Origin: a virus
Lineage: Duplodnaviria; Heunggongvirae; Uroviricota; Caudoviricetes
DNA: 41,648 bases
Reading direction: 5' to 3' (one strand)
IMG/VR virus record: IMGVR_UViG_2609459832_000005
The stretch's first letter is position 1, and each line of letters opens with the position of its first letter. The position numbers and the translations under genes were made by a program. The notes beneath the pieces are model-generated. The model saw only the letters and a list, made by a program, of their open reading frames with translations. It was not told where the DNA came from and did no database searches. Positions 826-33,254 of this stretch are shown in pieces.

Positions 826-3800
826 TCAACGAATACTGATGCCGGAAGCGGCTTTTTTGGTCACAATCACCGTACAGTCGGTGATATTGCCTGCCCCCTG
901 ATTGCCTTTCTGGAAAATCTTAAACTCCAGAGTGACGCTTCCCCTGCCACTCGGCATATCAATAACTGCACTGTAACTACCGGGAATGGCCCCTTTAGTT
1001 TCTCTGGATGCGATTAATACGCCGTTTTTGCGAACTTCAAAACCATAACCCGTGTATCGCGTGCCTCCTGGGTTATTTCCGCTCCCCGGATCGTCATACG
1101 CTATACCGTTAAAAATAATGGGCGGAATAATAATCTGGCGGTCAAAGTTATGATCATCGCTGATGGTGACTGTAACCGTACCGTTTGGTGTTTCCGTGTT
1201 ACCCCACGTACCGACTTTTTTCGGGAAGGCTTTTGATACAGCTTTAACGAAATCTCCTCTGACCTGGGTCGCCTCCAGCATGCCCTTAATCGTACAGTTC
1301 TGGTTAATCGTGACATTGTTGAGCGTTCCTGAGTTCGCATTCACACTGCCACTGATATCCGCATTTTTCGCCGTCAGTCTCCCGTCTGATGTCAGGGAAA
1401 ATGCCGGAGGATTACCGCCGCTGGTAATGGTGGGGGCCGTCAGGCGTTTCAGGAACACTTCATTCATGAATATCTGATCGCCCTGACCAACAAACATCGG
1501 CTTTGTGTTGCCATTCGCAGGATTAATCATCGCAATCCTGTCTGCTGCCAGCAGCACCTGACTCTGCATGCCGTCAGGGGTGTTCTCAATACCGGCACCG
1601 ATACCCGCAATATAAAGGCGTCCGTCCTGCATCTGCTGCAGCTTCACTGCCCACATGCTGTTCAGGTTATTATTTGTATCAACCTGAACCTTCTGTATCT
1701 GCTGGATCGCTGCACTCTGGTCTTCCAGTTTCTTATTGACGGTCTGTGTTATTTCATTGCTGACATCCGTTATGGACGTCCTGATTTCAGTCAGGTCAGG
1801 CGCAAGCTGACCGTTATCAATCTGCGTCCACAGCTCCTGAGCCAGATGGGTTTTCCCTATCTCGCCTTTGAAAAAATCCAGATAGCCTGATGCATCATCA
1901 CTCGGCTGACCGACAGCCTCCACGAATGCCGATTTGCCAACGGTGTTCACACTGCGAACGTAAAAATAATAATCATGGCCCGGTTTGATATTGATACTGG
2001 CGGCTATCCAGTACAGTGCCGTACCAAGATAACGCGCGCTGGTTTCAACCTGCCTGATATCCGCAATCCGTTTTTCCGAGAACCAGAACTCAAACTGTAC
2101 CGTCGGGTCATAAACCGCAAGATGCGGCGTGGCGGTTATCTGAAAATAGCCCGGCGTCAGCTCAATCCGCGACGGCGCTGCCGGTGCGGCAATCCGGAAC
2201 GATACCGACGCCGGATCGCCCTGCTGCCCCCACGCATTTACTGCCCGGACTGTCAGCCTGTAGTTCCCCAGAGCCAGTTGTGTGAAGCGGTAAGTGGTTT
2301 CTGTCGTCCGGGCCGTGCTGACCAGCCGCTCACTGCCGTCATCCGCTGTTACGGTCAGACGGAGCAGGAAGCTCACGCCCTTCACCACCTTCGGCGTGTC
2401 CCAGTGCGCCAGCACCTGATATTCCCCGCTGTCTGCGGTGACTTCTGCGGTCAGATGCTGCACTGCTGGCGGCGTGACACCATTCACCGTGCCGCTCTGG
2501 TCGCCGTCAAAGTGCGCCCCGTTATCCACGATGGCCTCTTTTTCCGGTACATGCTGCACGGCAGTGATGGCATACGTGCCGTCATCGTTCTCACGGATAC
2601 TCACGCAGCGGAACAGGCGCTGGCGCAACGTCGGCAACTTCAGCCCCCACAGGCTGTATTCTGCAACGCCGTCAGGAACACGGCTCACTTTTACCTTCAC
2701 GCCGTCGGTGACGGACTGGACCTCCACGCTGACCGGACTCCCCTGCCCGTCAACCAGGCTTATCAGCGTGGTGCCGGAGGCTGGCAGCGTGATTTCACGG
2801 TCGAGCGTCAGTGTCCGCGTCTGGCTGTTCACCGCCAGCACGCGCCCGCCGATGCTGATGCCCGCATAGTCATCATCGCAGATTTCAATGACATCGCCCG
2901 GTACATGGCGAAGCCCTTCTGCGCCCACGCTGAAGTCCACGGTCTGCGTTTCCAGCAGCTCCGTTTTAATCAGCCACAGCCCGGCGCGGTGTGCCTGCCC
3001 CCGGCTGGTACAGCCAAAAGCATCCATCTTCGTGACGTTACGACCGTAACGGGCAATGGCCTGCATGTCCTCCACAAGCTCTGTCGCCGTCTCCCAGCCG
3101 TTATTCGGGTCAATCCAGTTCACCTCAACGGCATTATGGCGGTCTTTCAGGGCGCTGAAGCTGTAGCGGAACGGCGCGCCATCATCCGGCATCACCACAT
3201 TACTGCGGTTATAGGTCCACACCTTATCTGATGGTCGGTCCTGCACGAACGTCAGCGTCTGCCCGTTCCATACCGGCATACAGCGCATCGCCGAGCAGAA
3301 ATCACTGAGCACATCCCACGCCTTGCGCTGTGTGGTCAGGTACGCATTACAGGTGATGCGCGGCTCCGTGCCGCCAAAGCCGTCCGGCACTGACTGGTCG
3401 CAGTACTGGCCGATGACATACAGCGCCCATTTGTCCACATCCGCCGCACCAAGACGTTTCCCCATGCCGTAGCGCGGATGGGTCAGCATATCCCACAGAC
3501 ACCAGGCCATGTTGTTGCTGTATGCCGGTTTAAACGTTCCGTCCCAGATACCGCTGTATTGCCGCGTCTGCGGGTTATAGTTCGACGGCACCTGCAGAAT
3601 GCGCCCGCGCAGATGATAATTACGGCTCACCTGCTGGCTGCCGAACTGCTCCGAATCCACCTGCACGCCGACCAGTGCCGTGTTCGGGTAGCCCTGTTTC
3701 ACATCGATGATTTCGGTGTATGACGACCAGAGCGTTTTGTTCTGCAGCTGGTCTGTGGTGCTGTCCGGCGTCATCCTGCGCATCCGGATATTGAACGGGC

Positions 3801-5031: not shown

Positions 5032-5672
5032 TTGTCGGTATACCTCTCTCGTTTGCTCAGTTGTTCAGGAATATGGTGCAGCAGCTCGCCGTCACCACAG
5101 TAAATGGCGGCATGATTCGGCACCGATGAACCAAAACAGCACAGCAGCACATCGCCCGGCTGCGCCGCTGACAACGGCACCTGATACAGCCCTGTGGCCT
5201 CCAGATTATCCAGATAGAGATTCTGACCGTGACGCCACCAGTCATCCCCGCGATGAAAATCCGGCATCTCAATCCCCGCCAGATGATAAGCATCCCGGAA
5301 CAGCGTGTAACAGTCCGTCACCCCGTGCTCAAAGCGCCGCCCGGTAAGATGCGGCACACTGCGGAATTTATGAATCTCACCCCGGCAGACCAGCCACCAA
5401 GGCAAATCGCTCTGCACCTGCAGCCGCCTGTCAGCCTCACTCAGCCAGGGCAGACCACCGGGGTGGCTGTGGACCAGCGCCACAATCTCACCCTGCATCT
5501 CTGACCGCAGCCAGTCCTCCGGCGACATCCGGAAATACGCCTCCGGCTCACCGGAGATATTCACGCTGGGAAAATATCTTTCCCCCTCCGGCGTTCTCAC
5601 CACGAAGCCGCACGATTCCGCTGGCGCACATCGCCGGGCGTGCGCCAGAATCGCTGATTCTGTCTGTGTCAT
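4929..5672 (-). CDS. K: Tail assembly protein K (MPN/JAB plus NlpC/P60-like domains)
   Basis: ORF track gives 272 aa from an upstream start; likely true start MTQTESAILAHARRCAP (247 aa) just after the L stop; HSHP motif (JAB-type) and C..H residues as in lambda gpK. Confidence 0.8.
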   Translation of the reverse strand: MTQTESAILAHARRCAPAESCGFVVRTPEGERYFPSVNISGEPEAYFRMSPEDWLRSEMQGEIVALVHSHPGGLPWLSEADRRLQVQSDLPWWLVCRGEIHKFRSVPHLTGRRFEHGVTDCYTLFRDAYHLAGIEMPDFHRGDDWWRHGQNLYLDNLEATGLYQVPLSAAQPGDVLLCCFGSSVPNHAAIYCGDGELLHHIPEQLSKRERYTDKWQRRTHSLWRHRAWHASAFTGICNDLAAASTFV

Positions 5673-23984: not shown

Positions 23985-24437
23985 ATGATGATTATGCTTA
24001 TTAAAGTTTTAATTAACATAGTTATCAGTGGGCTGTTAGCTTGGGTGCTTGGGAAATACCTAGCGCCTATGGCTCACTCTGATATCTTAAGTACAGCCGG
24101 AGTGTTATCTACGGTGGCAGGCATTTTGTTTGGTTTTGTATTGGCCGCTATTTCCATCTTCAGTTCTGCAAGTTCAAGTACTGATGGAATTATTTTTGCT
24201 TTAAAACAAAACAAGATTTTACCTAAAATTATTCATAACCTGTTATCTACGGGAGTTACCTTAATATTAGCATGTATTTTCCCGCTGATAGCAATGTTTA
24301 TAAATGAAAAAATCACCATTACCTCTGTAAGACTTGATTTCGCCCTAACCTTATATGGTTTCTCGACCCTGATCGTATCAATAGTTTCATTTGCAAGTAC
24401 CTGGAGGAAAATAAACTGGATATTACCCCACATATAA
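23985..24437 (+). CDS. AT-rich cargo protein B, 150-aa integral membrane protein (about 4 TM helices); candidate membrane effector
   Basis: Four hydrophobic stretches (VLINIVISGLLAWVLG; VLSTVAGILFGFVLAAISIF; LLSTGVTLILACIFPLIAMF; LTLYGFSTLIVSIVSFAS); 14 bp downstream of protein A, co-oriented; size and topology like lambda RexB. Confidence 0.65.
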   Translation: MMIMLIKVLINIVISGLLAWVLGKYLAPMAHSDILSTAGVLSTVAGILFGFVLAAISIFSSASSSTDGIIFALKQNKILPKIIHNLLSTGVTLILACIFPLIAMFINEKITITSVRLDFALTLYGFSTLIVSIVSFASTWRKINWILPHI

Positions 24438-24440
24438 TAT

Positions 24441-24466
24441 TAAGCAGGTGCAAGCACACCTGCTTA
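24441..24466. terminator. Hairpin between convergent cassette and Q genes
   Basis: Perfect 9-bp stem AAGCAGGTG / CACCTGCTT with 6-nt loop; no clear U-tract on either strand, so function as terminator is inferred from position only. Confidence 0.35.
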
Positions 24467-24480
24467 TCCAAACCAAGATA

Positions 24481-24843
24481 TTAATCCATATCTAAGCTAA
24501 CATTTAGAATAGCTAGACAACCTTCTATAAATCCCTCAGCCATCTGTATCTCAATGCGTATTATTTTCTCATCCTTTTTACGAGCTTTAGCGAGCTTTCT
24601 TTTAGAGATACCGTATAGGTAATGGGCAACAAGAAGCGAGTGTTCTTCAGGTCTTTTTTGCTTTAGACGAGCAAGACAACCTTCAATAATTAATGCATCA
24701 CTATCTGAACAAGCCTGACGTGTTTTGCTTGTATAGGGAAGAAGCCCTTTAAACCCAGCAGCTATAGGCGAATAGTCTACCCCAGAACTATCACTCGCCG
24801 CCCATGCACCCCAACGATCCAGAACCATCTGAATATCACGCAT
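24481..24843 (-). CDS. Late-gene antiterminator Q (small Q family, QuuD-like)
   Basis: Likely start MRDIQMVLDRWGAWAA.. (120 aa), which matches my recollection of E. coli QuuD; Cys-containing region SDSDALIIEGCLARLK; last gene of the early-right cluster. Confidence 0.75.
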   Translation of the reverse strand: MRDIQMVLDRWGAWAASDSSGVDYSPIAAGFKGLLPYTSKTRQACSDSDALIIEGCLARLKQKRPEEHSLLVAHYLYGISKRKLAKARKKDEKIIRIEIQMAEGFIEGCLAILNVSLDMD

Positions 24844-24860
24844 CAACTTTCTCCACAAAA

Positions 24861-25856
24861 TCAGGCCAGCACGCCAGTTGCCAGCGCGCGATCGATAAAA
24901 CGAAATATCAGCTCCAGCTGGGAGCCATACTTCTCTTCAAATGCCACGGTATCCGCATGCAGCTCGTCGTGATGCTTTCTGCACAAAGGCAGCACGAAGA
25001 GGTCATGCGCTTTTGTACCTATTCCACCCTGACCGTGGCCTATCAGGTGGTGGGGATCATCAGCAGGCTTTCCACAACATGCACACGGCTGCGTCTTAAC
25101 CCAGCGCGTGTACTTTTCGTTAACCCAGCGGCGACGTTTTGGGCGTAACATAAAAGACTCCGGCGACTCCGGATCCACTTTCAGCGCCAGCACCTTTTTC
25201 GCTTTATTCTGGATGATGCTGGTGGCAGGAACCGAAGGCACAAGGTCACTTTCCCGGGTAACAGACGGCACAACAGGCTTCGGTAATCTAAGTGCCTTAC
25301 GGGCTGCACTTTCCGGTAAGGCATCCGCCAGGTCATTACGAATCAGCCACCAGCACAGTTCCGGCATTGTCACAACGTGACTGTCATCAAAACCGAGATC
25401 CCGACGCACAACAGACAACACCCAGCGGGCACAGTTATCCGTTGCCATTGATTCCAGCCGTTCCGTGAACTGATCACGCAGCTGGTTATCGCAGTGCCAG
25501 CACAGACGGATTGCGCCCGGAGCGTGTCGCATTGTGGTTATGTTCTCGCTGTGCCAGTCGGAATGAGGCCACTGGCAGCCTTTTTCACGAAGTAACCAGC
25601 TTTCAAGACATTCCACGCCACCAGCACGACGGATCACTGCCTCATTGCGGAACACGGCCCGAACGGCAGGATCATCCGCCAGCGGTTGTGATGCCGCCGG
25701 AACGGCACCACTGGCGAAAGATGAATAACGTTCCGGCTCAGGCTCCAGCAGGACACGCCCCTGCATAAACAGGGGCATCAGCTCTGAACCTGGCCTGAAC
25801 AATACGATCCCCATACGCGGGGCAATTTCAGGAGTCAGTAGTGCTCTCACGGTCAC
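24861..25856 (-). CDS. DUF968-like protein with C-terminal HNH-like Cys/His motif
   Basis: 331 aa; C-terminal CACCGK..HHLIGHGQGG..CRKHHDELH cluster; nin-region position upstream of Q. Confidence 0.55.
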   Translation of the reverse strand: MTVRALLTPEIAPRMGIVLFRPGSELMPLFMQGRVLLEPEPERYSSFASGAVPAASQPLADDPAVRAVFRNEAVIRRAGGVECLESWLLREKGCQWPHSDWHSENITTMRHAPGAIRLCWHCDNQLRDQFTERLESMATDNCARWVLSVVRRDLGFDDSHVVTMPELCWWLIRNDLADALPESAARKALRLPKPVVPSVTRESDLVPSVPATSIIQNKAKKVLALKVDPESPESFMLRPKRRRWVNEKYTRWVKTQPCACCGKPADDPHHLIGHGQGGIGTKAHDLFVLPLCRKHHDELHADTVAFEEKYGSQLELIFRFIDRALATGVLA

Positions 25857-25857
25857 C

Positions 25858-26655
25858 TCAATGAACGGTATCGAGCAGCTTTAACAGCTCAGGGAATCGG
25901 GATTCGAAGAAATGCGGCTGCGTCTCGCGCGGATTTGCGGGACTGGTGATGTTCTTGCCGAACATGCAGCCTTTCGCTGTCAGCGACCAGAATTTTTTGA
26001 TGTTGTTAATCGCGGTACGGCTGTATCGTTCGCGCTGCTCGACGATCCCCAGCTTCACCATCTGGTGATATGCCTGATTAGCCGTCAGGCGGATACCATA
26101 CTGTTTCAGCAGTGCACTCAGTGACAGTGTCGGGCGACTTGAGCCATCGTGTGCATCAGCAGGAGCATCAATGGCATAGCGCGGTGCCAGATTCGGTAAG
26201 CCAACAGCCTCCTGAAGCTTCTGACAGGCTCCAAGCACTGATGAGTTAGACAGGTTTAATTCCCGGCGCATAAAGTCCAGCAGGATCACGCCAGCCTGCA
26301 TCTTGTCAGCAGCCTGCCCGGATAATTTTTCCGGTGTGCTGGTTACCATATCGAAAGTACGGATCACCTTCAGATGGAATGACGGGCTGATCCACATTGC
26401 ATAGGCATACACCAGTTCTTTGCAGACATACGTCCCCTGGTTATTTCCGCCACGAATAACGTTAACTGGCTCTATATTGACCGAGTTGCAAATCTGCAAC
26501 TCGCTTATTAAACGTTCAGTTTGCTCATTGCGGAGCCAGAATGCAGGCTTATGCTTATCCAGAGAACCGGCAGCCCTGTGTAGATCGTTCAGGCTGTAAC
26601 GCCCATAAGCATCACGACGAACTTCAATACCATCAATGACCATCAGATTATTCAT
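25858..26655 (-). CDS. KilA-N domain protein (antirepressor-like)
   Basis: N-terminal KilA-N signature (..[28 protein letters not shown]..). Confidence 0.7.
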   Translation of the reverse strand: [265 protein letters not shown]

Positions 26656-26674
26656 ACTTCGTTTCTCCTCTTAA

Positions 26675-27064
26675 TCAGGCGGCTGCACCCGCCGGTTTCT
26701 CATACTTACTGATAGTGATCTCGACCTTCCCTTTCGGGATAACCGGTCCCCACTCCACCAGCATTCTTTTCACCTGTCTGTCGTCTTCCCACACACCCGC
26801 ATGGGTCAGGGCGTCAAACAGCGCCTTGTTATAGTTGTCCAGATCGCGGATCCGGTTATCCGGAGGAAACAACACGATCTCCACTGAAGCAGGTGCCGAC
26901 GTTGGTTTCGGCAGACGACGTAACTGCTCAACTATTGCTGCGCACGCCGCGCTCTGAAATTTTCGCCCCGCCTCGCTTATCAGGCTCTTACCTGCAAACG
27001 CCCCTTTGTTGGGGTGTCGCCAGTACGTATTCACGCTGGGCGGGAAAGGCAGGATCAGTTTCAT
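26675..27064 (-). CDS. rusA: Holliday-junction resolvase RusA
   Basis: 129 aa; N-terminal LPFPPSVNTYWRH and acidic catalytic residues (..DLDNY..ALFDAL) typical of RusA. Confidence 0.85.
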   Translation of the reverse strand: MKLILPFPPSVNTYWRHPNKGAFAGKSLISEAGRKFQSAACAAIVEQLRRLPKPTSAPASVEIVLFPPDNRIRDLDNYNKALFDALTHAGVWEDDRQVKRMLVEWGPVIPKGKVEITISKYEKPAGAAA

Positions 27065-27387
27065 ACTTTCAGGCCTCTCTCATGTAGCCAGTGGGTTGCA
27101 CGCAGCCTTGCGTTTTCCTCATCGGCAAGCAGTGCGCGGATAATCCCGACAGCCTCGCTGTCGTCGTCCTTCACCGCGGTATGAAGCGTTATCCCCCGGG
27201 CCACGCCACGCTTTATCGTGATGACGCCTTTTTTCTCCAGTGCGCGAAGATGCTCCACCGCTGCATTCACCGAACGGTATCCCAGCATGGTTGCCACCTC
27301 CTGATTGGTTGGCGGGAAGCCACGTTCTTTCTGGTAAGAAATCAGCATATCCAGCACCTGCTGCTGGCATTGAGTTAACGTCGTCAT
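27061..27387 (-). CDS. LexA N-terminal DNA-binding-domain protein lacking the S24 peptidase domain
   Basis: Likely start MTTLTQCQQQVLDMLISYQKERGFPPTNQEVATMLGYRSVNAAVEHLRALEKKGVITI.. parallels the LexA N-terminus as I recall it ([58 protein letters not shown]); no Ser/Lys peptidase region follows. Confidence 0.65.
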   Translation of the reverse strand: MTTLTQCQQQVLDMLISYQKERGFPPTNQEVATMLGYRSVNAAVEHLRALEKKGVITIKRGVARGITLHTAVKDDDSEAVGIIRALLADEENARLRATHWLHERGLKV

Positions 27388-27881
27388 TAAGCCCCCACGT
27401 AATTCCCTGACAGATACCACTCTTCACCTGATGCAGCCCGCTTACTGCTTTTCCGTAAACACCGTTCACGACGCGCCAGAAAATTGTTTCGTTCTGGCTG
27501 GGAGTGGCTTTCACGGAATGCCGCCATCCACACCGTTGCAGCACGACGGTATAAGCCCCTGGACTCCAGTTCTTCCGCCTGGCGGGTCAGGCACAAAATC
27601 ACCCGCGGGTCGTTAGTGCCGACATAGAAATTGCGCACAGGTCTGGTTTCACGAACTGGTTGTGGTTCCGGCCCCTGCGCTCTCTCAGTCAGGCGCGGGA
27701 AATGTCTGCGTGTATCTCCTTCACAACGGTGAGCCACACGCCCACTCTGACGTAACTTGCTTGCTGACTGCAGAACGCGCTGTCGTGAGTAACCAGCAAA
27801 AGCATCCGCAATGTCTCCGGAAGTGCACCCCGGATGGGCATCAATGAATTTCTGAACGTCATTTAACAGACTCATGATCAC
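27387..27881 (-). CDS. PerC-like transcriptional regulator homologue
   Basis: 164 aa; segment LESRGLYRRAATVWMAAF resembles the PerC-family core motif; assignment from memory. Confidence 0.45.
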   Translation of the reverse strand: MIMSLLNDVQKFIDAHPGCTSGDIADAFAGYSRQRVLQSASKLRQSGRVAHRCEGDTRRHFPRLTERAQGPEPQPVRETRPVRNFYVGTNDPRVILCLTRQAEELESRGLYRRAATVWMAAFRESHSQPERNNFLARRERCLRKSSKRAASGEEWYLSGNYVGA

Positions 27882-28696
27882 CCCCTAAATCCTGCCGGGA
27901 TCTGGCTGTAGTCCACGTTGTCGTAACTGGCTTTGAAGTACGGGTCCTCGCGTCTGGCTGCAGATACCGCAGGAACTTCCCAGGATTCTTCGAAATGACG
28001 ATCCGGACCAAAGAACGTGACAGCCTGTTTCACAAATTGTGTGCCGCTGTTACCCATCGCAGATACCCAGCCCGCGTAGCGTTTCACACCTTCCAGCATG
28101 GTTTCGGGTTTTACCCCCTCATTCAAACGAGCTTTCCAGGCTTTGAAGGCTGCAGATTTTGAATTGCCACCAGCACGTTTGGGGTATGCCAGCCATGCCT
28201 GCTCAAACTCCGGAGAGTATTCCGGTCGGTTTGAACGAACTCGCACGGACTCATCAGCAGATGCACCAACAGCTATTGGTTCATTGACTGGTTCTTTGAC
28301 TGGTTCAAAAGAGTGACTGGTTCTGGGTGAATCTCCTGCACCACCCCCTGGTGCAACTCCTGCACTACCTGGTGAATTTGCTGCACCAGATAGTGAATTA
28401 TTTGCACTACCCCCTAGTGAATCTCCTGCACCATCAAGATGAAGGAGATAGATATTACTTGAGTTACCTTTTTCACCTTTCCGGGTGACTTTTTTTACCA
28501 GCCCGGAATCACAAAGGGCCGCAATATGATTCATCACAGAACGTTTGCTAATCTCGCACTGGTCAGCAATATGCTGGTAGCTGGGCCAGCACTCGCCCTG
28601 ATCGCTGGCATTATCAGCCAGCTTGATCAGAACCAGTTTTCGCAATGGATTACCCACTCGAATTTTCATCGCTTTAACCATCAGCTCCATACTCAT
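27878..28696 (-). CDS. Replication initiator (lambda O-like; N-terminal winged-helix, low-complexity linker)
   Basis: 272 aa; N-terminal HTH (WPSYQHIADQCEISKRSVMNHIAALCDSGLV); Gly/Ser/Ala/Pro-rich linker encoded by tandem DNA repeats (candidate ori iterons inside the gene, as in lambda O). Confidence 0.55.
   Translation of the reverse strand: MSMELMVKAMKIRVGNPLRKLVLIKLADNASDQGECWPSYQHIADQCEISKRSVMNHIAALCDSGLVKKVTRKGEKGNSSNIYLLHLDGAGDSLGGSANNSLSGAANSPGSAGVAPGGGAGDSPRTSHSFEPVKEPVNEPIAVGASADESVRVRSNRPEYSPEFEQAWLAYPKRAGGNSKSAAFKAWKARLNEGVKPETMLEGVKRYAGWVSAMGNSGTQFVKQAVTFFGPDRHFEESWEVPAVSAARREDPYFKASYDNVDYSQIPAGFRG
28327..28433. repeat. Five tandem ~17-bp repeats (period 21-24 bp), candidate origin iterons
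   Basis: GTGAATCTCCTGCACCA (28327), GTGCAACTCCTGCACTA (28351), GTGAATTTGCTGCACCA (28372), GTGAATTATTTGCACTA (28393), GTGAATCTCCTGCACCA (28417); adjacent triplet of TGACTGGTTC at ~28283-28321. Confidence 0.5.
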
Positions 28697-28929
28697 GCTG
28701 CACCTCCGAGATGCTTCATGTTTTTTCCGGAGCGAAAGGCTATAAGCGGCATACTGACGCGGTAATTACGGCCCAGCGGTTCACAAATCACCTTCTGACA
28801 TTCACGGTCAACCAGGCTGACACGTAGAACATGCCCTGCTGGCGTGGTGTACCACTGCCCAACTGTGGGTGTTGATATTTTTTTACGCTGAAATAAACGG
28901 TAAATGTTGAGGAGCAACGGATTAAGCAT
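28693..28929 (-). CDS. Hypothetical protein
   Basis: 78-aa ORF, translationally overlapping neighbours in the early-right operon; no motif recognised. Confidence 0.35.
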   Translation of the reverse strand: MLNPLLLNIYRLFQRKKISTPTVGQWYTTPAGHVLRVSLVDRECQKVICEPLGRNYRVSMPLIAFRSGKNMKHLGGAA

Positions 28930-29758
28930 GACGATGCCCTCCGCTGATATTCAGGAGACGGTGAATATGAAAATTAGCCTTATCCGCCAGACGAATACGT
29001 TCAGCTTGCAAGTTAAGAAGGGTTTCTACCAGAACCTGATGTGCCTGCGGATCCGAAAGAGTTACCTTGCGCAGAGCACGTAGTGCAGTTGTTACATAAC
29101 TGAGTTTATGTAAGTCTTCATCATTCAGACGAGTGAGGGCTGGGACAGTAGCCATGATGGCAGCCTCCTTGATCGGTGAAATACTTCCACCACCGGAAAC
29201 GCCAATTTCGCTGGTGGTGAACTGAACGGGGTTGGCGTAACCGGTGATCAAGGAAACCGGCGCATCTTTCGATGCCCCCGCCCAGCCCACCATAACTTTG
29301 ATGTGAGCAAATGCGGACGATAAAAAAGACGCTGGCGCGTCATATATCGCCTTGATCAATTCCAGGACGCCAATCCCGGCACCCGCTTTATAAGGTGCCT
29401 GAACAGTGTAACGTCCCGGAATGGCAGAATCAATGTGCTGGTGGTCCTTCACACTCAACAAAATCACGCCTGAATTTCCACAAAGGACTAAAGCACTCAT
29501 GCGGGTAGTCTTTGCGAAGATAGATAACGCGCTGTGTTTCTGGCTCCCAACGAATAACATGAACATAAAGTCCTCTTCCGTCACGAAACCAGCGGTTAAG
29601 TTCCTGCACAACTCGCCCCCCACAGTCAGGTAAAGTTCTCTGTGGTTACTTACAGCCAGGTGATTTGGTAATCTGCATTCATGCCGTAACAACAGGTGTT
29701 CAGCGACGCTGACCACCAGCTGTTGCGACAAACGGTTATTTGCCGTTAAACTGTTCAT
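28922..29758 (-). CDS. Hypothetical protein (replication-region gene of unknown function)
   Basis: 278-aa ORF between the CII-like gene and the O-like gene; no Walker motif; function not recognisable. Confidence 0.45.
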   Translation of the reverse strand: MNSLTANNRLSQQLVVSVAEHLLLRHECRLPNHLAVSNHRELYLTVGGELCRNLTAGFVTEEDFMFMLFVGSQKHSALSIFAKTTRMSALVLCGNSGVILLSVKDHQHIDSAIPGRYTVQAPYKAGAGIGVLELIKAIYDAPASFLSSAFAHIKVMVGWAGASKDAPVSLITGYANPVQFTTSEIGVSGGGSISPIKEAAIMATVPALTRLNDEDLHKLSYVTTALRALRKVTLSDPQAHQVLVETLLNLQAERIRLADKANFHIHRLLNISGGHRHA

Positions 29759-30318
29759 GCGTTAGTTTCTCCACAGACACAAAACGCCACGACGCCCGGA
29801 GCTGCACACTCGCGGGCGTCACTCTTTTCTGGAGCGCAAAAGATTTTGTAGACCAGTGCTGCATGCTCCTGGAGCTTCGAAATTGACAGATACAACTCAT
29901 CATTAATTGCTGTCTGCTCGTGTGGCTCCACTACCCCATCTTCGATTGCCGAACGAATCTGCTTTGAGTAACTCCCGATCTGTTCGATGACTTCCAGCAG
30001 GCGCTGGTTTATATCGGCGTTCTCTACTTCCTCAATTTCAGGAAGCGATACAAACACCCCACCAGCAGACTGTGCGACAGCATCCGCAATGTAGTGAGTG
30101 CCAGCCGCGCGCTGTAAAATCATTGCCCATCCCAGCGGGAAAATCTGATCGCCATCTGCACGAAGGCGGTTGAATAAAGCGTTCTCTGTTACATCCAGCC
30201 ACTCAGCAGCTTCAGCGTAACCCCCCGGCAACGCCGCGATAGTTTTTCTGACAGCTTTCACGTACCACTCAGGCTGTTTTTCTACTTTCCAGTGATGCTT
30301 ACCCACGGTTAGCCTCAT
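29755..30318 (-). CDS. CII-like regulatory protein (CP76/YdaT-like position)
   Basis: 187-aa ORF directly downstream of cro; probable HTH around LDVTENALFNRLRADGDQ; assignment by position and weak recollection. Confidence 0.4.
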   Translation of the reverse strand: MRLTVGKHHWKVEKQPEWYVKAVRKTIAALPGGYAEAAEWLDVTENALFNRLRADGDQIFPLGWAMILQRAAGTHYIADAVAQSAGGVFVSLPEIEEVENADINQRLLEVIEQIGSYSKQIRSAIEDGVVEPHEQTAINDELYLSISKLQEHAALVYKIFCAPEKSDARECAAPGVVAFCVCGETNA

Positions 30319-30349
30319 CGTTCTGTGGTTAAAAATTGAAGGTGTTCTG

Positions 30350-30550
30350 TTAATCTTTCGGATAGATATCCGGTCTTAAGTCAGATTTCGTAATTGCACC
30401 TGACGTGCATTGCTCAAGTTTTTTAGCCAGCACAAAACTGGCTTTTTTATAACCATTGAAAACCAGCCGTAAGTAGCCTGGTGTTGAGCCAACTTTTCCG
30501 GCCAACTCGCCCTGCTGTTCTTTGGTTAAAGAGTCCCAATACGCTTTCAT
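30350..30550 (-). CDS. cro: Cro-like repressor (HTH)
   Basis: Likely start MKAYWDSLTKEQQGELAGKVGSTPGYLRLVFNG.. (66 aa) preceded by GGAGG; divergent from cI across an operator-containing intergenic region; the 167-aa track ORF is an upstream extension. Confidence 0.65.
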   Translation of the reverse strand: MKAYWDSLTKEQQGELAGKVGSTPGYLRLVFNGYKKASFVLAKKLEQCTSGAITKSDLRPDIYPKD

Positions 30551-30640
30551 ACAATATGTACCTCCGGTATACATATTACATGATTGAGATGAACCTTCAA
30601 GATACTTGTACCTTATCGGTACAAAGGTTTTAATTTCTTT
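30551..30640. promoter_or_regulatory. Immunity-region operator/promoter interval (PR / PRM with inverted-repeat operators)
   Basis: Perfect inverted repeat TTGTACC-ttatc-GGTACAA (30606-30624); second TGTACC half-site at 30557-30562; candidate PR -35 TTGAAG and -10 TAATAT on the minus strand upstream of cro. Confidence 0.55.
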
Positions 30641-31315
30641 ATGAAAACAGTCCATGACATCCGGCGGTCTAACGCCAGAAAACTGAGAGATGGTGTTGGC
30701 GGGAATTCTTCCTTTGCCACCATGATTGATCGCGAGCCAACCCAGACCAGCAGGTTTATGGGAGATGGTGCTACTAAAAATATCGGTGACAGCATGGCAC
30801 GGCACATCGAAAAATGTTTCGACCTGCCTGTCGGATGGCTTGATCAAGAACACCAGACAACAAACATCACAAAAAAACCTGATGTTTCAATTACTAACAA
30901 ACAAATAACGTTAGTCCCTGTCATATCATGGGTACAGGCCGGAGCATGGAAAGAAGTTGGCTATTCTGAGGTTGATTTGAGCACAGCAGAAACTTATCCC
31001 TGCCCTGTACCCTGTGGCGAAATGACTTATATCTTGCGGGTGATTGGTGATTCAATGATTGATGAGTACCGCCCGGGAGACATGATTTTTGTAGATCCTG
31101 AAGTCCCTGCCTGCCACGGTGACGACGTTATTGCATTGATGCACGATACAGGCGAAACCACCTTTAAGCGGTTGATAGAAGATGGAACACAGCGTTACCT
31201 CAAAGCATTAAACCCAAACTGGCCTGAACCTTACATTAAGATCAACGGTAATTGCTCTATAATTGGCACAGTAATTTTCTCAGGAAAACCAAGAAGATAC
31301 AAAATAAAGGCCTAA
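30641..31315 (+). CDS. cI: CI-type prophage repressor (N-terminal HTH plus C-terminal S24 LexA-like autopeptidase)
   Basis: 224 aa; C-terminal domain with Ser nucleophile motif VIGDSM and Lys in TFKRL; N-terminal HTH; divergent from cro. Confidence 0.85.
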   Translation: MKTVHDIRRSNARKLRDGVGGNSSFATMIDREPTQTSRFMGDGATKNIGDSMARHIEKCFDLPVGWLDQEHQTTNITKKPDVSITNKQITLVPVISWVQAGAWKEVGYSEVDLSTAETYPCPVPCGEMTYILRVIGDSMIDEYRPGDMIFVDPEVPACHGDDVIALMHDTGETTFKRLIEDGTQRYLKALNPNWPEPYIKINGNCSIIGTVIFSGKPRRYKIKA

Positions 31316-31326
31316 TCAATATTTAT

Positions 31327-31349
31327 AACCTGCTTCGGCAGGTTTTTTT
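31327..31349 (+). terminator. Rho-independent terminator after cI
   Basis: Stem AACCTGC / GCAGGTT with TTCG tetraloop followed by T7. Confidence 0.65.
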
Positions 31350-31353
31350 ATAC

Positions 31354-31386
31354 TTGACAATGTACCCTTGAGATACATAATGTATC
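31354..31386 (+). promoter_or_regulatory. pL-like early-left promoter with overlapping operator palindrome
   Basis: -35 TTGACA (31354-31359), 16-bp spacer, -10 CATAAT (31376-31381); TGTACC operator half-site in the spacer and perfect palindrome GATACAT-A-ATGTATC (31372-31386) over the -10. Confidence 0.55.
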
Positions 31387-31807
31387 TAAAAGAAACATGT
31401 CACAGGCAAGATTAAACAAAATTTGGTTGTAACACGGCGTATGGCACATGCGTCGTTAGCGGTCTGGGGACGTTAAAGGGGACAATCCACTCCTTGCTCG
31501 GGCAAACAAACCAGGTAGCCGGAATGTGCAAGTCAATGATGATGCTGATAAGACGCCTAACCAGCGTGGCGATCCGGTTTGACGCCTGGGAAGAGACTAG
31601 GGTGCAACGATGAGGGCATTTATGGAGCCGCGACAAAGTGTGGTGCCGTAACTGGCTAAGTGCTCTCAGCGTTGTGGTGAATACGCAGGCTGATGCGCGA
31701 AAGACATTGCAGCTAATGCGGAAAAGAGCTGTTCGGCGGGGCAATTAAACGCCCGAGAGAGTCTGAAATAACCGCAAGCCGGAGATCAGCACCGGTCACC
31801 ACAACAG

Positions 31808-31864
31808 CCACTGCTTTGGCGGTACCAGTTTGTACACTTGCTTCCGGCTGGTACCGCTCTTTTT
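31808..31864 (+). ncRNA. DicF-like small RNA candidate ending at an intrinsic terminator
   Basis: CTTTGGCGGTACCAGTTTGTAC resembles the Qin-prophage DicF core (GUUUGGCGGUAUCAGUUUUAC) as I recall it; 10-bp stem GCGGTACCAG / CTGGTACCGC (31819-31857) followed by TCTTTTT. Confidence 0.4.
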
Positions 31865-32001
31865 ACAAAACAGAGAAGAGCATCACCGGACGACGGGCTC
31901 ATAACCCAATCCATCCGGGCGGCTGCCACCGCAGGTGTTCTTCTCTGTTTTGTGGAGAAACCAACCGACCTTGCAGGGTCGATATGATGAGGAGCAGCAA
32001 A

Positions 32002-32364
32002 ATGGCTAGCGAACGCAGTACTGATGTGCAGGCATTTATCGGGGAGCTGGACGGCGGCGTATTTGAAACCAAAATCGGCGCAGTTCTCAGTGAAGTCGCT
32101 TCAGGTGTGATGAACACGAAAACCAAAGGTAAGGTCTCACTCAACCTGGAAATCGAACCATTTGATGAGAACCGTGTGAAAATCAAACACAAACTCTCAT
32201 ATGTTCGCCCGACTAACCGCGGGAAAATTTCCGAAGAAGACACCACCGAAACGCCGATGTATGTCAATCGCGGTGGTCGCCTGACTATTCTGCAGGAAGA
32301 CCAGGGACAATTACTGACTCTTGCCGGTGAACCTGACGGAAAACTCCGCGCAGCAGGTCATTAA
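32002..32364 (+). CDS. YfdP-like protein (120 aa)
   Basis: Likely start MASERSTDV.. preceded by GAGGAG; same length and position as yfdP in CPS-53-type prophages; the 182-aa track ORF upstream extension overlaps the sRNA terminator. Confidence 0.5.
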   Translation: MASERSTDVQAFIGELDGGVFETKIGAVLSEVASGVMNTKTKGKVSLNLEIEPFDENRVKIKHKLSYVRPTNRGKISEEDTTETPMYVNRGGRLTILQEDQGQLLTLAGEPDGKLRAAGH

Positions 32365-32429
32365 TACCGTTCTTAATTAACCGATTATTTATCTCATCAC
32401 TGAATATCTTTATATAGTGAGGACTTATT

Positions 32430-33254
32430 ATGTCTCAGAACTTAGACGCAACCGCAATTAATCAAATCCATGCCCTTATTTCTGCTCAGGGTGTTAATGA
32501 AATTATCAGTAAGATTGGTGCCGATGCTGTGGCATTGCCTGAGAATTTCCGCATTCATGATCTGGAAAAATTTAATTTAAATCGCTTCCGTTTCCGTGGT
32601 GCGCTTTCCACTGCCAGCATCGATGACTTTACCCGTTATTCTAAAGATCTTGCAGATGAAGGCACCCGCTGCTTTATCGATGCCGATAATATGCGAGCAG
32701 TCAGTGTGCTTAACCTGGGTACTATTGATGAACCAGGTCACGCAGATAACACCGCCACTCTCAAACTGAAAAAGACAGCACCGTTCTCTGCCCTGTTGTC
32801 TGTTAACGGCGAGCGTAACTCCCAGAAGTCACTGGCAGAATGGATTGAAGACTGGGCCGACTACCTTGTGGGCTTTGATGCTAATGGTGACGCCATTCAG
32901 GCAACCAAAGCGGCTGCGGCGATCCGTAAAATCACAATTGAAGCGAACCAGACCGCTGATTTTGAAGACAATGACTTCAGCGGCAAACGCTCCCTGATGG
33001 AGTCTGTCGAAGCGAAGACCAAAGACATTATGCCAGTGGCATTTGAATTTAAATGCGTTCCGTTTGAAGGCCTGAAAGAACGTCCGTTTAAATTACGCCT
33101 CAGCATTATCACTGGCGATCGTCCTGTACTGGTTCTGCGCATTATTCAGCTGGAAGCGGTGCAGGAAGAAATGGCTAACGAATTTCGTGATCTGCTTGTT
33201 GAGAAATTTAAAGACAGCAAAGTAGAAACCTTTATTGGTACTTTCACCGCCTGA
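32430..33254 (+). CDS. YfdQ-like protein (DUF2303 family, 274 aa)
   Basis: 274-aa ORF in a yfdP-yfdQ-yfdR-yfdS gene order; length equals E. coli YfdQ; assignment from synteny and memory. Confidence 0.55.

Follow-up and report, generated by a model that had tools for sequence, protein, structure and literature searches.

The DNA analysed here is a 41,648-nt stretch of viral origin (IMG/VR record IMGVR_UViG_2609459832_000005), called the window below; coordinates are window positions, on the + strand unless stated. Our subject is the leader of its pL operon. The repressor gene, a ymfK-like member of the LexA family (30641-31315, as annotated by the Prokaryotic Genome Annotation Pipeline, PGAP, in a 99.6% identical genome), is followed by its intrinsic terminator (31327-31344; supported by a terminator scan, the sequence and the same annotation) and then by a pL-type sigma-70 promoter, TTGACA-16-CATAAT (31354-31381), which matches the consensus at 11 of 12 positions and would start transcription near position 31388. 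The first protein-coding gene of the operon, yfdP, begins only at 32002 and ends at 32364. Between promoter and yfdP lie ~614 nt without a credible gene, in agreement with the original prediction, which had noticed only very short open reading frames (ORFs) behind a pL-like promoter and had proposed that the leader ends in a small RNA (sRNA) like DicF, the Qin prophage sRNA that inhibits ftsZ translation. The analysis described below indicates that this leader is a modular non-coding RNA cassette, apparently comparable in kind to the ydfC-dicF-dicB segment of Qin and to what heads the ban operon of phage P1. It comprises a conserved structured core of ~190 nt and two long stems, between which lie a "slot" domain and a terminator hairpin that is related to DicF but is not DicF.

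The leader is non-coding. Its + strand contains ORFs of 39 and 36 aa only; a 182-aa ORF starting with TTG (31816-32364) is an in-frame upstream extension of yfdP, and no conservation of a 110-aa ORF on the minus strand was found in relatives. PGAP annotates no gene in the leader of the 99.6% identical chromosome. Among the different sequence types of the leader, the longest open frame switches strand and frame, tblastn matches are split into pieces in differing frames, the differences in length between hairpin loops are not divisible by three, and no reading frame is kept throughout. Hypothetical proteins are annotated over the region in the records of mEp460, cdtI and other phages. No N-like gene adjoins pL, the first gene being yfdP and none being annotated in the near-identical genome. 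When the whole window was searched with Rfam at the gathering threshold, only a C4 antisense RNA and isrK were called, both ~2 kb away and on the other strand. The window contains no tRNA according to ARAGORN, and in the leader no match to the Rfam tRNA model appeared at E<=10.

A search of phage genomes revealed that the leader is a mosaic whose separate blocks recur in P1, D6, TL-2011b/phiV10, SfV, IME207 and Klebsiella phages; a scan of IMG/VR with an 18-nt motif of the core recovered ~120 copies. The "~450-nt leader" originally described is non-coding as proposed, but it is more than a leader, being assembled from conserved structured RNA modules common to P1, phiV10-type and other phages. 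In 132 copies the cassette has the same order: core, long stem ending in ...CGUUG, and slot starting with GUGG.... The slot holds a block typical of Qin, where it precedes DicF, in 42 copies, the block found in the window (block B) in ~28, and a tRNA-Arg(UCU) gene in 26-27, while the rest carry other modules or nothing; 90 of the 132 copies end in a hairpin at the position of DicF. The +1 base of the tRNA-Arg(UCU) is in register with the GUGG, and block B is also found directly after tRNA-Thr in a P1 isolate and in Klebsiella phages. Junctions between the mosaics of different phages fall on GUUGUGG and CCACAAC strings. The genomic setting varies. Lambdoid copies have a promoter-proximal core, which starts 105-107 nt past the stop codon of a window-type repressor gene in 29 related copies, and in 58 copies the distance from the core motif down to yfdP is 470-548 nt. 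The core of P1-like elements comes after tRNA-Ile. Phages of the phiV10 type have a self-contained cassette between late operons, with a TTGACA -35 sequence, in which promoter, core, stem, tRNA-Arg and hairpin follow each other and which ends at the hairpin. At three loci (L046, L098 and L124) strings resembling a T arm, GGTTCGATTCC and GGTTCAATTCC, occur in the variable apex of the stem or in the slot where no tRNA is called; they may be tRNA fragments or tRNA-like inserts.

SfV lacks the core and retains stem, slot and hairpin. Its slot filler, GUGGUGAAUGCGGCUCAGCGCACGCGGG...GGGAGGCACCCGGCACC (1355-1485 of locus L007), resembles a module that follows DicF in Qin, within the long stem before dicB (3460-3580 of locus L002), so that the same modules appear in differing orders in different prophages. 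The orf33 gene, which takes the place of the core in SfV, was considered as a functional clue and set aside as uninformative; its product is a small protein of no evident kind and not Arg-rich.

The core (31418-31607) was delimited by alignment, RNAalifold, pair counts and a covariance model (R1). Besides a 5' hairpin and a multi-helix junction, it has two hairpins whose loops are YUMACCA and GGAAGAG. Its 64 distinct versions align cleanly. The core has ~75 invariant columns; both loops and the junctions CAGGUAGCCGGAAUGUGCAAG and UGGCGAUYCGGUKUGAC are invariant. Given 24 representatives, RNAalifold unaided recovers two covarying hairpins. A model of 39 pairs leaves 97.8% of the cells paired, as against 34-43% when the registers are slid, with 10 pairs changed on both sides (1-3 when slid) and a covariation score of 0.209 (<=0.060 when slid) that none of 500 shuffles reached. 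A pseudoknot pairing GCACAU with AUGUGC is possible; because the columns concerned are invariant, covariation neither supports nor refutes it or the GCCGGA/UYCGGU helix, and some of these bases are given another long-range pairing by RNAalifold.

R1 finds a single copy of the core in the window (210 bits); two P1 records likewise have one copy each, which scores 202 bits and lies between trnI and ban. It has no match in the early region of HK022 that holds put (24000-33000), in Qin or in SfV; the core is therefore distinct from put, and core and hairpin are separable. The second-best match of R1 in the window (2539-2628; 12.4 bits, rough E = 0.006), where the model is squeezed into 90 nt, was judged to be noise. 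At E<=10 no Rfam family matches the core, either in the leader or in P1, and an exact-sequence search of the papers available returned no match to it. Among species-representative genomes the core motif is confined to the Enterobacterales; it occurs in hundreds of P1-like plasmids, and the core is found in the P1 ban operon, in phiV10-type phages and in common E. coli prophages, Stx2c phages included. At locus L046 of IMG/VR, tandem short hairpins that repeat the two loop motifs of the core (NNNN-CUGACCA-NNNN hairpins and hairpins with a GGAAAGA loop, several per locus) lie ~300-500 nt downstream of the core and also upstream of it, as if they were a repeated binding unit. Likenesses seen by eye to domain IV of 4.5S RNA, rrn boxA and integron attC core sites, and to a T-loop in the YUMACCA hairpin, were dropped, no tool having returned them. 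A role as a sponge for CsrA through GGA hairpins was also dropped, as the count of GGA is not above expectation. As for published candidates, the mEpimmI paper concerns a different phage group, and those on the sRNAs Pas, EcOnc and HnrS a moron site at PR'.

Directly after the core comes a long imperfect stem with a variable apex, CAACGAUGAGGGCAUU...AAGUGCUCUCAGCGUUG (31602-31678). Its fold is more stable than that of shuffled sequences in the window (z = -3.3), in phiV10-type phages (z = -5.9) and in Qin (z = -3.7), and a compensatory replacement is seen at loci L026 and L039. The stem may be a processing site of the RNase III type, equivalent to the one that precedes the pre-DicF block of Qin. 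The slot domain (block B, 31672-31806; delimited by predicted fold and slot census) is predicted to form a multi-branched structure (z = -2.1) closed by a helix between GUUGUGGUGA and UCACCACAAC. The bases GUUG at 31672-31675 can pair in either of two helices but not in both at once: in CAACG/CGUUG, with which the long stem ends, or at the start of the closing helix of the slot; this sharing could amount to a conformational switch, or the closing helix could form only after the long stem has been cut. A second, very stable long stem with 21 pairs at its base follows the terminator immediately (31864-31954; -47.3 kcal/mol, z = -7.7). Its Qin equivalent, the long-range stem between DicF and dicB, has z = -4.4, and loci L057 and L076 retain the stem with altered sequence. 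By analogy, RNase III would here split the non-coding RNA from the yfdP mRNA. Qin yields an RNase III-dependent DicF species of 190 nt (PMC10448788) and, again through RNase III, the 72-nt DicF (PMC5069750). Judged from these lengths, the former would start ~137 nt upstream of DicF, on the 3' strand of the upstream long stem, and the latter would result from a cut ~19 nt past the terminator, inside the downstream long stem.

The hairpin itself (31818-31858, and with its U-tract 31818-31864) consists of 13 pairs, 10 of them Watson-Crick (31819-31828 with 31848-31857) and flanked by wobble pairs, a pyrimidine-rich loop of 15 nt that contains CUUCC, and the tract UCUUUUU ending at 31864. The fold (-21.2 kcal/mol, z = -4.1) bears out the 10-bp stem at 31819-31857 followed by TCTTTTT that had been predicted. 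With a GC-rich stem before a U-tract, the hairpin has the form of an intrinsic terminator and is probably both a terminator and the 3' end of a stable RNA. The terminator scanner missed it because its loop exceeds 8 nt; the phiV10-type homologue was flagged as terminator-like.

The resemblance to DicF was assessed with the actual K-12 DicF sequence. The segment TTTGGCGGTA[C/T]CAGTTT[G]TAC (31815-31835) aligns with nt 13-32 of DicF with 19 identities, one mismatch and one gap, and is the sole stretch that can be aligned. On the scale of the leader its score of 30 exceeds all 500 shuffles (15.5 +/- 2.1, maximum 27). On the scale of the window, both strands included, shuffled DicF reaches 33, so the 19/21 match is not significant alone and becomes convincing only through related loci. 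The similarity of this 5' flank to the core of DicF, as first noticed, is thus real against the leader, but would not by itself have stood out in the whole window.

Related loci provide this context. In cdtI-type phages block B is swapped for a block ~90% identical to the Qin sequence directly upstream of DicF, and this Qin-type block is followed by exactly the hairpin of the window, which places the hairpin at the position of DicF. By these comparisons the window hairpin is a relative of the DicF terminator hairpin. The base of the stem, UUGGCGGU...ACCGCCCUUUUU, is conserved throughout the family, DicF included, and the upper stem undergoes compensatory changes (GGUACC/GGUACC, GGUGCC/GGCACC, GGUGAU/AUCACC, GGUGG/CCACC). 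In the family alignment 94.6% of the cells are paired, three pairs are changed on both sides, and the covariation score is reached by none of 500 shuffles; DicF is the member whose upper stem is open. Among close relatives the loop is more variable than the stem. The block formed by hairpin and stem is present in 2493 of 5426 complete E. coli genomes. The window itself shares with Qin only the 21 nt and the GUUGUGG/CAAC helix strings, while its closest relatives share the full pre-DicF block. The supposition that the context is that of Qin also proved sound, since the hairpin occupies the position of DicF in a homologous non-coding arrangement, behind a repressor-controlled promoter and with a stem on either side. 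"dicF-like" prophage sequences were reportedly described by Faubladier and Bouche in 1994, and the family is said to have been known in outline since then.

These observations are best accommodated by a model to which we would assign a probability of roughly 0.6. By analogy with Qin, the interval would be the precursor of processed non-coding RNAs at the head of the pL operon. Upon derepression, RNA polymerase would transcribe in order the 190-nt core, the long stem, the slot domain, the GC-rich hairpin with its U-tract, the second long stem and yfdP. The hairpin, a diverged relative of the DicF terminator, would act as a leaky intrinsic terminator. Transcripts ending there, and read-through transcripts cut in the flanking stems by RNase III as in Qin, would give rise to stable RNAs, namely the core RNA and an RNA of ~190-200 nt made of slot plus hairpin, analogous to the 190-nt DicF precursor; read-through would also allow expression of yfdP and later genes. 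Support for the model comes from the position and family of the hairpin, from the covarying core, from the recurrence of the cassette, its place near promoters behind repressor genes and its self-contained form in phiV10-type phages, from the non-coding nature of the leader, from the features that set the hairpin apart from DicF, and from the flanking stems, laid out alike in the window and in Qin, where the RNase III-dependent 190-nt and 72-nt species are documented. Several points weigh against it. Termination efficiency, processing sites and stability of the products rest on analogy, and in Qin itself the RNase III cuts were placed on the stems by fragment lengths, not by published coordinates. 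The predicted fold of the slot improves little on that of shuffled sequences (z = -2.1), and the core is without an assigned function. The perfect 10-bp upper stem buries most of the hairpin, exposing only a loop that varies among close relatives, so that a purely structural terminator fits as well as an sRNA.

The foremost alternative is that the leader acts only in cis and yields no trans-acting RNA, the core being either an antiterminator of the HK022 put type or a riboswitch-like sensor that decides on read-through into yfdP. It would do so by modifying RNA polymerase, or by toggling the competing CAAC...GUUG and GUUGUGG...CCACAAC helices, to both of which the GUUG at 31672-31675 belongs. 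This scheme, which we consider unlikely, accords with the lack of an N-like gene next to pL, with a core that starts ~30 nt past the presumed transcription start and precedes a strong terminator, and with loops and junctions conserved to a level typical of RNAs that bind a macromolecule or a ligand. It is at odds with the silence of R1 on the HK022 region that carries put, and with the single copy of the core in the window, none being found in the rightward operon, unlike the putL and putR pair of HK022. Nor does it fit the core of P1, which lies 2.3 kb from the promoter and directly before ban with no terminator between, or that of phiV10-type phages, which heads a tRNA unit ending at the hairpin.

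Quite improbable is the proposal that the blocks function as DNA, as protein-binding sites or as recombination boundaries that promote mosaic exchange, their RNA folds being incidental. The mosaic junctions do coincide with short conserved GTTGTGG and CCACAAC strings, and the blocks do recur in unrelated phage backbones. However, compensatory changes preserve pairing, G-U pairs included; the pattern is strand-specific, as seen in the U-tract of the terminator, the co-orientation with tRNA genes and the invariable sense orientation behind promoters; and a role as boundary leaves the invariant loop sequences unexplained.

Slightly more improbable still is the possibility that the hairpin belongs to a functional DicF orthologue, processed from the pL transcript and blocking division by pairing with the ribosome-binding site of ftsZ. 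The 19/21 match to nt 13-32, the position in the operon, the DicF-like flanking architecture and the pyrimidine-rich loop with CUUCC all speak for it. Other results do not. The Rfam model of DicF (RF00039; curated threshold 48 bits) has no match in the window at the gathering threshold, nor, with permissive filters, at E<=10 on 31300-32050, whereas the positive control, Qin DicF, scores 76.7 bits. RF00039 likewise calls none of the variant hairpins at the seven related loci that have one (L004, L006, L057, L076, L088, L098 and L124). In DicF, the 12-nt single-stranded 5' end pairs with xylR and the 3' region with ftsZ and pykA, loop and 3' arm being the part that pairs with ftsZ (PMC5069750). 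In an alignment of window, cdtI and Qin, the 5' seed UUUCUGGUGACG is absent from the window and cdtI, as it sits in a 19-nt insertion specific to Qin, and the loop and 3' arm of the window hairpin are unlike those of DicF. The 21 nt that can be aligned form the 5' arm of the terminator stem and belong neither to the part that pairs with xylR nor to that which pairs with ftsZ and pykA (PMC5069750). Cofolding with ftsZ (-70 to +30) gains only -1.7 kcal/mol for 31808-31864 and -5.2 kcal/mol for 31795-31864, with 92 and 45, respectively, of 100 shuffled targets equal or better; the gain for DicF is -14.5 kcal/mol, and none of 100 shuffled targets is as good. Pairing of the window RNA with ftsZ was therefore rejected.

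Of six features that define DicF, three are lacking (the model score, the 5' seed and complementarity to ftsZ) and two are present. The latter are the form of the Rho-independent terminator hairpin, with GGCGG/CCGCC base and U-tract, and the operon context, in which a repressor-controlled operon carries a structured non-coding block before the hairpin and, after it, a long stem and then the first ORF. By these sequence features, the hairpin is not DicF, but a diverged member of the wider dicF-locus family. The suggestion of a DicF-like sRNA thus survives as a positional homologue of DicF, and fails as regards DicF itself. Lacking the 5' seed and the ftsZ-pairing sequence, the hairpin RNA should not inhibit division via ftsZ, and if it acts in trans its targets would differ from those of DicF. 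Within the window, a search for targets of the hairpin loop or linker gave only self-antisense matches, others being at the null level.

Finally, that the leader encodes small proteins, from the 39-aa and 36-aa frames or the 110-aa minus-strand frame, is hardly credible, for although these ORFs exist and several phage records annotate hypothetical proteins there, the shifting frames, fragmented tblastn matches, loop lengths and absence of a PGAP gene set out above all contradict it.

Two linked readings are put forward tentatively, as rather less probable than not. In the first, the core represents an undescribed class of structured phage RNA. The core combines conservation at the level of a riboswitch or ribozyme with several covarying helices and a possible pseudoknot, and within the Enterobacterales it is distributed over plasmid prophages like P1, lambdoid prophages and phages of the epsilon15/phiV10 type; its target could be either a conserved host machine or the polymerase transcribing it. 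In the second, sRNAs of the DicF type would go back to a mobile cassette made of promoter, core, stem, tRNA or tRNA-like cargo and terminator, whose cargo slot is exchanged among phages; there they would first have served as 3' trailer and terminator. DicF, usually treated as a single oddity of Qin, here takes its place in a large and diversifying family of terminator hairpins with which modular non-coding cassettes end. Since the members are not alike in loop and seed, the host genes targeted may vary from one prophage to another, and some prophages may target none. What appears to be new is the explicit architecture of the cassette, with a slot whose content is exchangeable and may be a tRNA, together with the 190-nt core RNA. 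In common E. coli prophages the core lies right at the head of the early transcript, which makes it a testable candidate for a novel regulatory RNA of phages. That one slot houses real tRNAs as well as non-tRNA modules points to a way in which tRNA transcription units may give rise to phage sRNAs.

Some features surrounding the leader deserve mention. A perfect 15-bp palindrome, GATACATAATGTATC (31372-31386), overlaps the -10 hexamer of the pL-type promoter and is a candidate operator. This is the one perfect copy; another with three mismatches lies in the divergent-promoter region (30548-30562), and the total of four matches in the window is not significant by itself, since 3 of 100 shuffles reach four. 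The same pL-type promoter is carried by SfV. At the other end of the leader, the ribosome-binding site of yfdP, GAGGAG (31990-31995), is directly preceded by a small hairpin, ACCGACCUUGCAGGGUCGAU (31964-31983), identified in the sequence and by an inverted-repeat scan, which reported it on the minus strand. In the CPS-53 prophage of K-12, the yfdO-yfdP intergenic region (5240-5612 of locus L137, compared with 31640-32010 of the window) is unrelated to the leader until 20 nt before the yfdP start, where homology sets in exactly at AUGAUGAGGAGCAGCAAAAUG; only ribosome-binding site and coding part are common, so the whole leader has been replaced or lost there. CPS-53 was for this reason dropped as a source of experimental data. 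In the rightward operon, the C4 antisense RNA (29210-29297, minus strand; 82.3 bits) and isrK (29322-29398, minus strand; 64.2 bits) lie in tandem. PGAP runs two genes of the 99.6% identical genome through both RNAs on the same strand, one for an "ash family protein" (window 28922-29467, minus strand) and one for a DUF4222 protein; either a start codon is wrongly assigned or the RNAs overlap coding sequence. The pair looks like an RNA-controlled module of the kind represented by P1 immI and IsrK of Gifsy-1.

Among known systems, the dicF locus of Qin in E. coli K-12 is closest to the leader. Both lie downstream of a repressor-controlled promoter and present, in the same order, a long stem, a multi-hairpin block closed by a GUUGUGG-type helix, a GGCGG...CCGCC terminator with U-tract, a second long stem and the first ORF. 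The two hardly differ in the 5' arm of the hairpin, and close relatives of the window hold the pre-DicF block of Qin in their slot. The window differs from Qin in lacking the 5' tail of DicF, a match to the Rfam DicF model and predicted pairing with ftsZ, in having another loop and 3' arm and a perfect upper stem, in carrying block B in the slot and yfdP, not dicB, as first ORF, and in possessing the 190-nt core, which Qin lacks.

Next comes the leader of the C1-controlled ban operon of P1, with its annotated "dicF-like region", trnA, trnT and trnI. It has the same core in the trnI-ban spacer (202 bits) and, as in the window, forms a long non-coding stretch ahead of an early operon under repressor control; its "dicF-like region" is the Qin-type pre-DicF block, and in a P1 isolate block B follows tRNA-Thr. 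In contrast to the window, P1 has its modules dispersed over 2.5 kb, with tRNA and tci genes in between, and the core stands directly before ban with no hairpin of the DicF position after it. After the P1 core and ahead of the ribosome-binding site of ban, the sequence AUUUUCUGGUGAUGAC (3190-3215 of NC_005856, locus L003) closely resembles, by eye, the 5' end of DicF, AAUUUUCUGGUGACG, which is the part of DicF absent from the window.

More distant parallels can be drawn with two other systems. Some tRNA operons give rise to an sRNA from their 3' trailer or terminator, as exemplified by 3'ETS-leuZ of E. coli. The phiV10-type cassette, with tRNA-Arg(UCU) in the slot and a DicF-family hairpin as trailer and terminator, conforms to this pattern, whereas the slot of the window contains no tRNA by ARAGORN or the Rfam tRNA model and is tRNA-like only in that its closing helix is in the register of an acceptor stem. 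The put RNAs of HK022, the two-stem-loop elements putL and putR, mediate RNA-based processive antitermination downstream of pL and pR. Like them, the core is a structured RNA that lies near the start of the pL transcript and ahead of a terminator, and its phage is lambdoid and has no N gene at pL; it differs from put in that it has no match to these RNAs in sequence or structure, is much larger, exists in a single copy and is also found in contexts other than pL.

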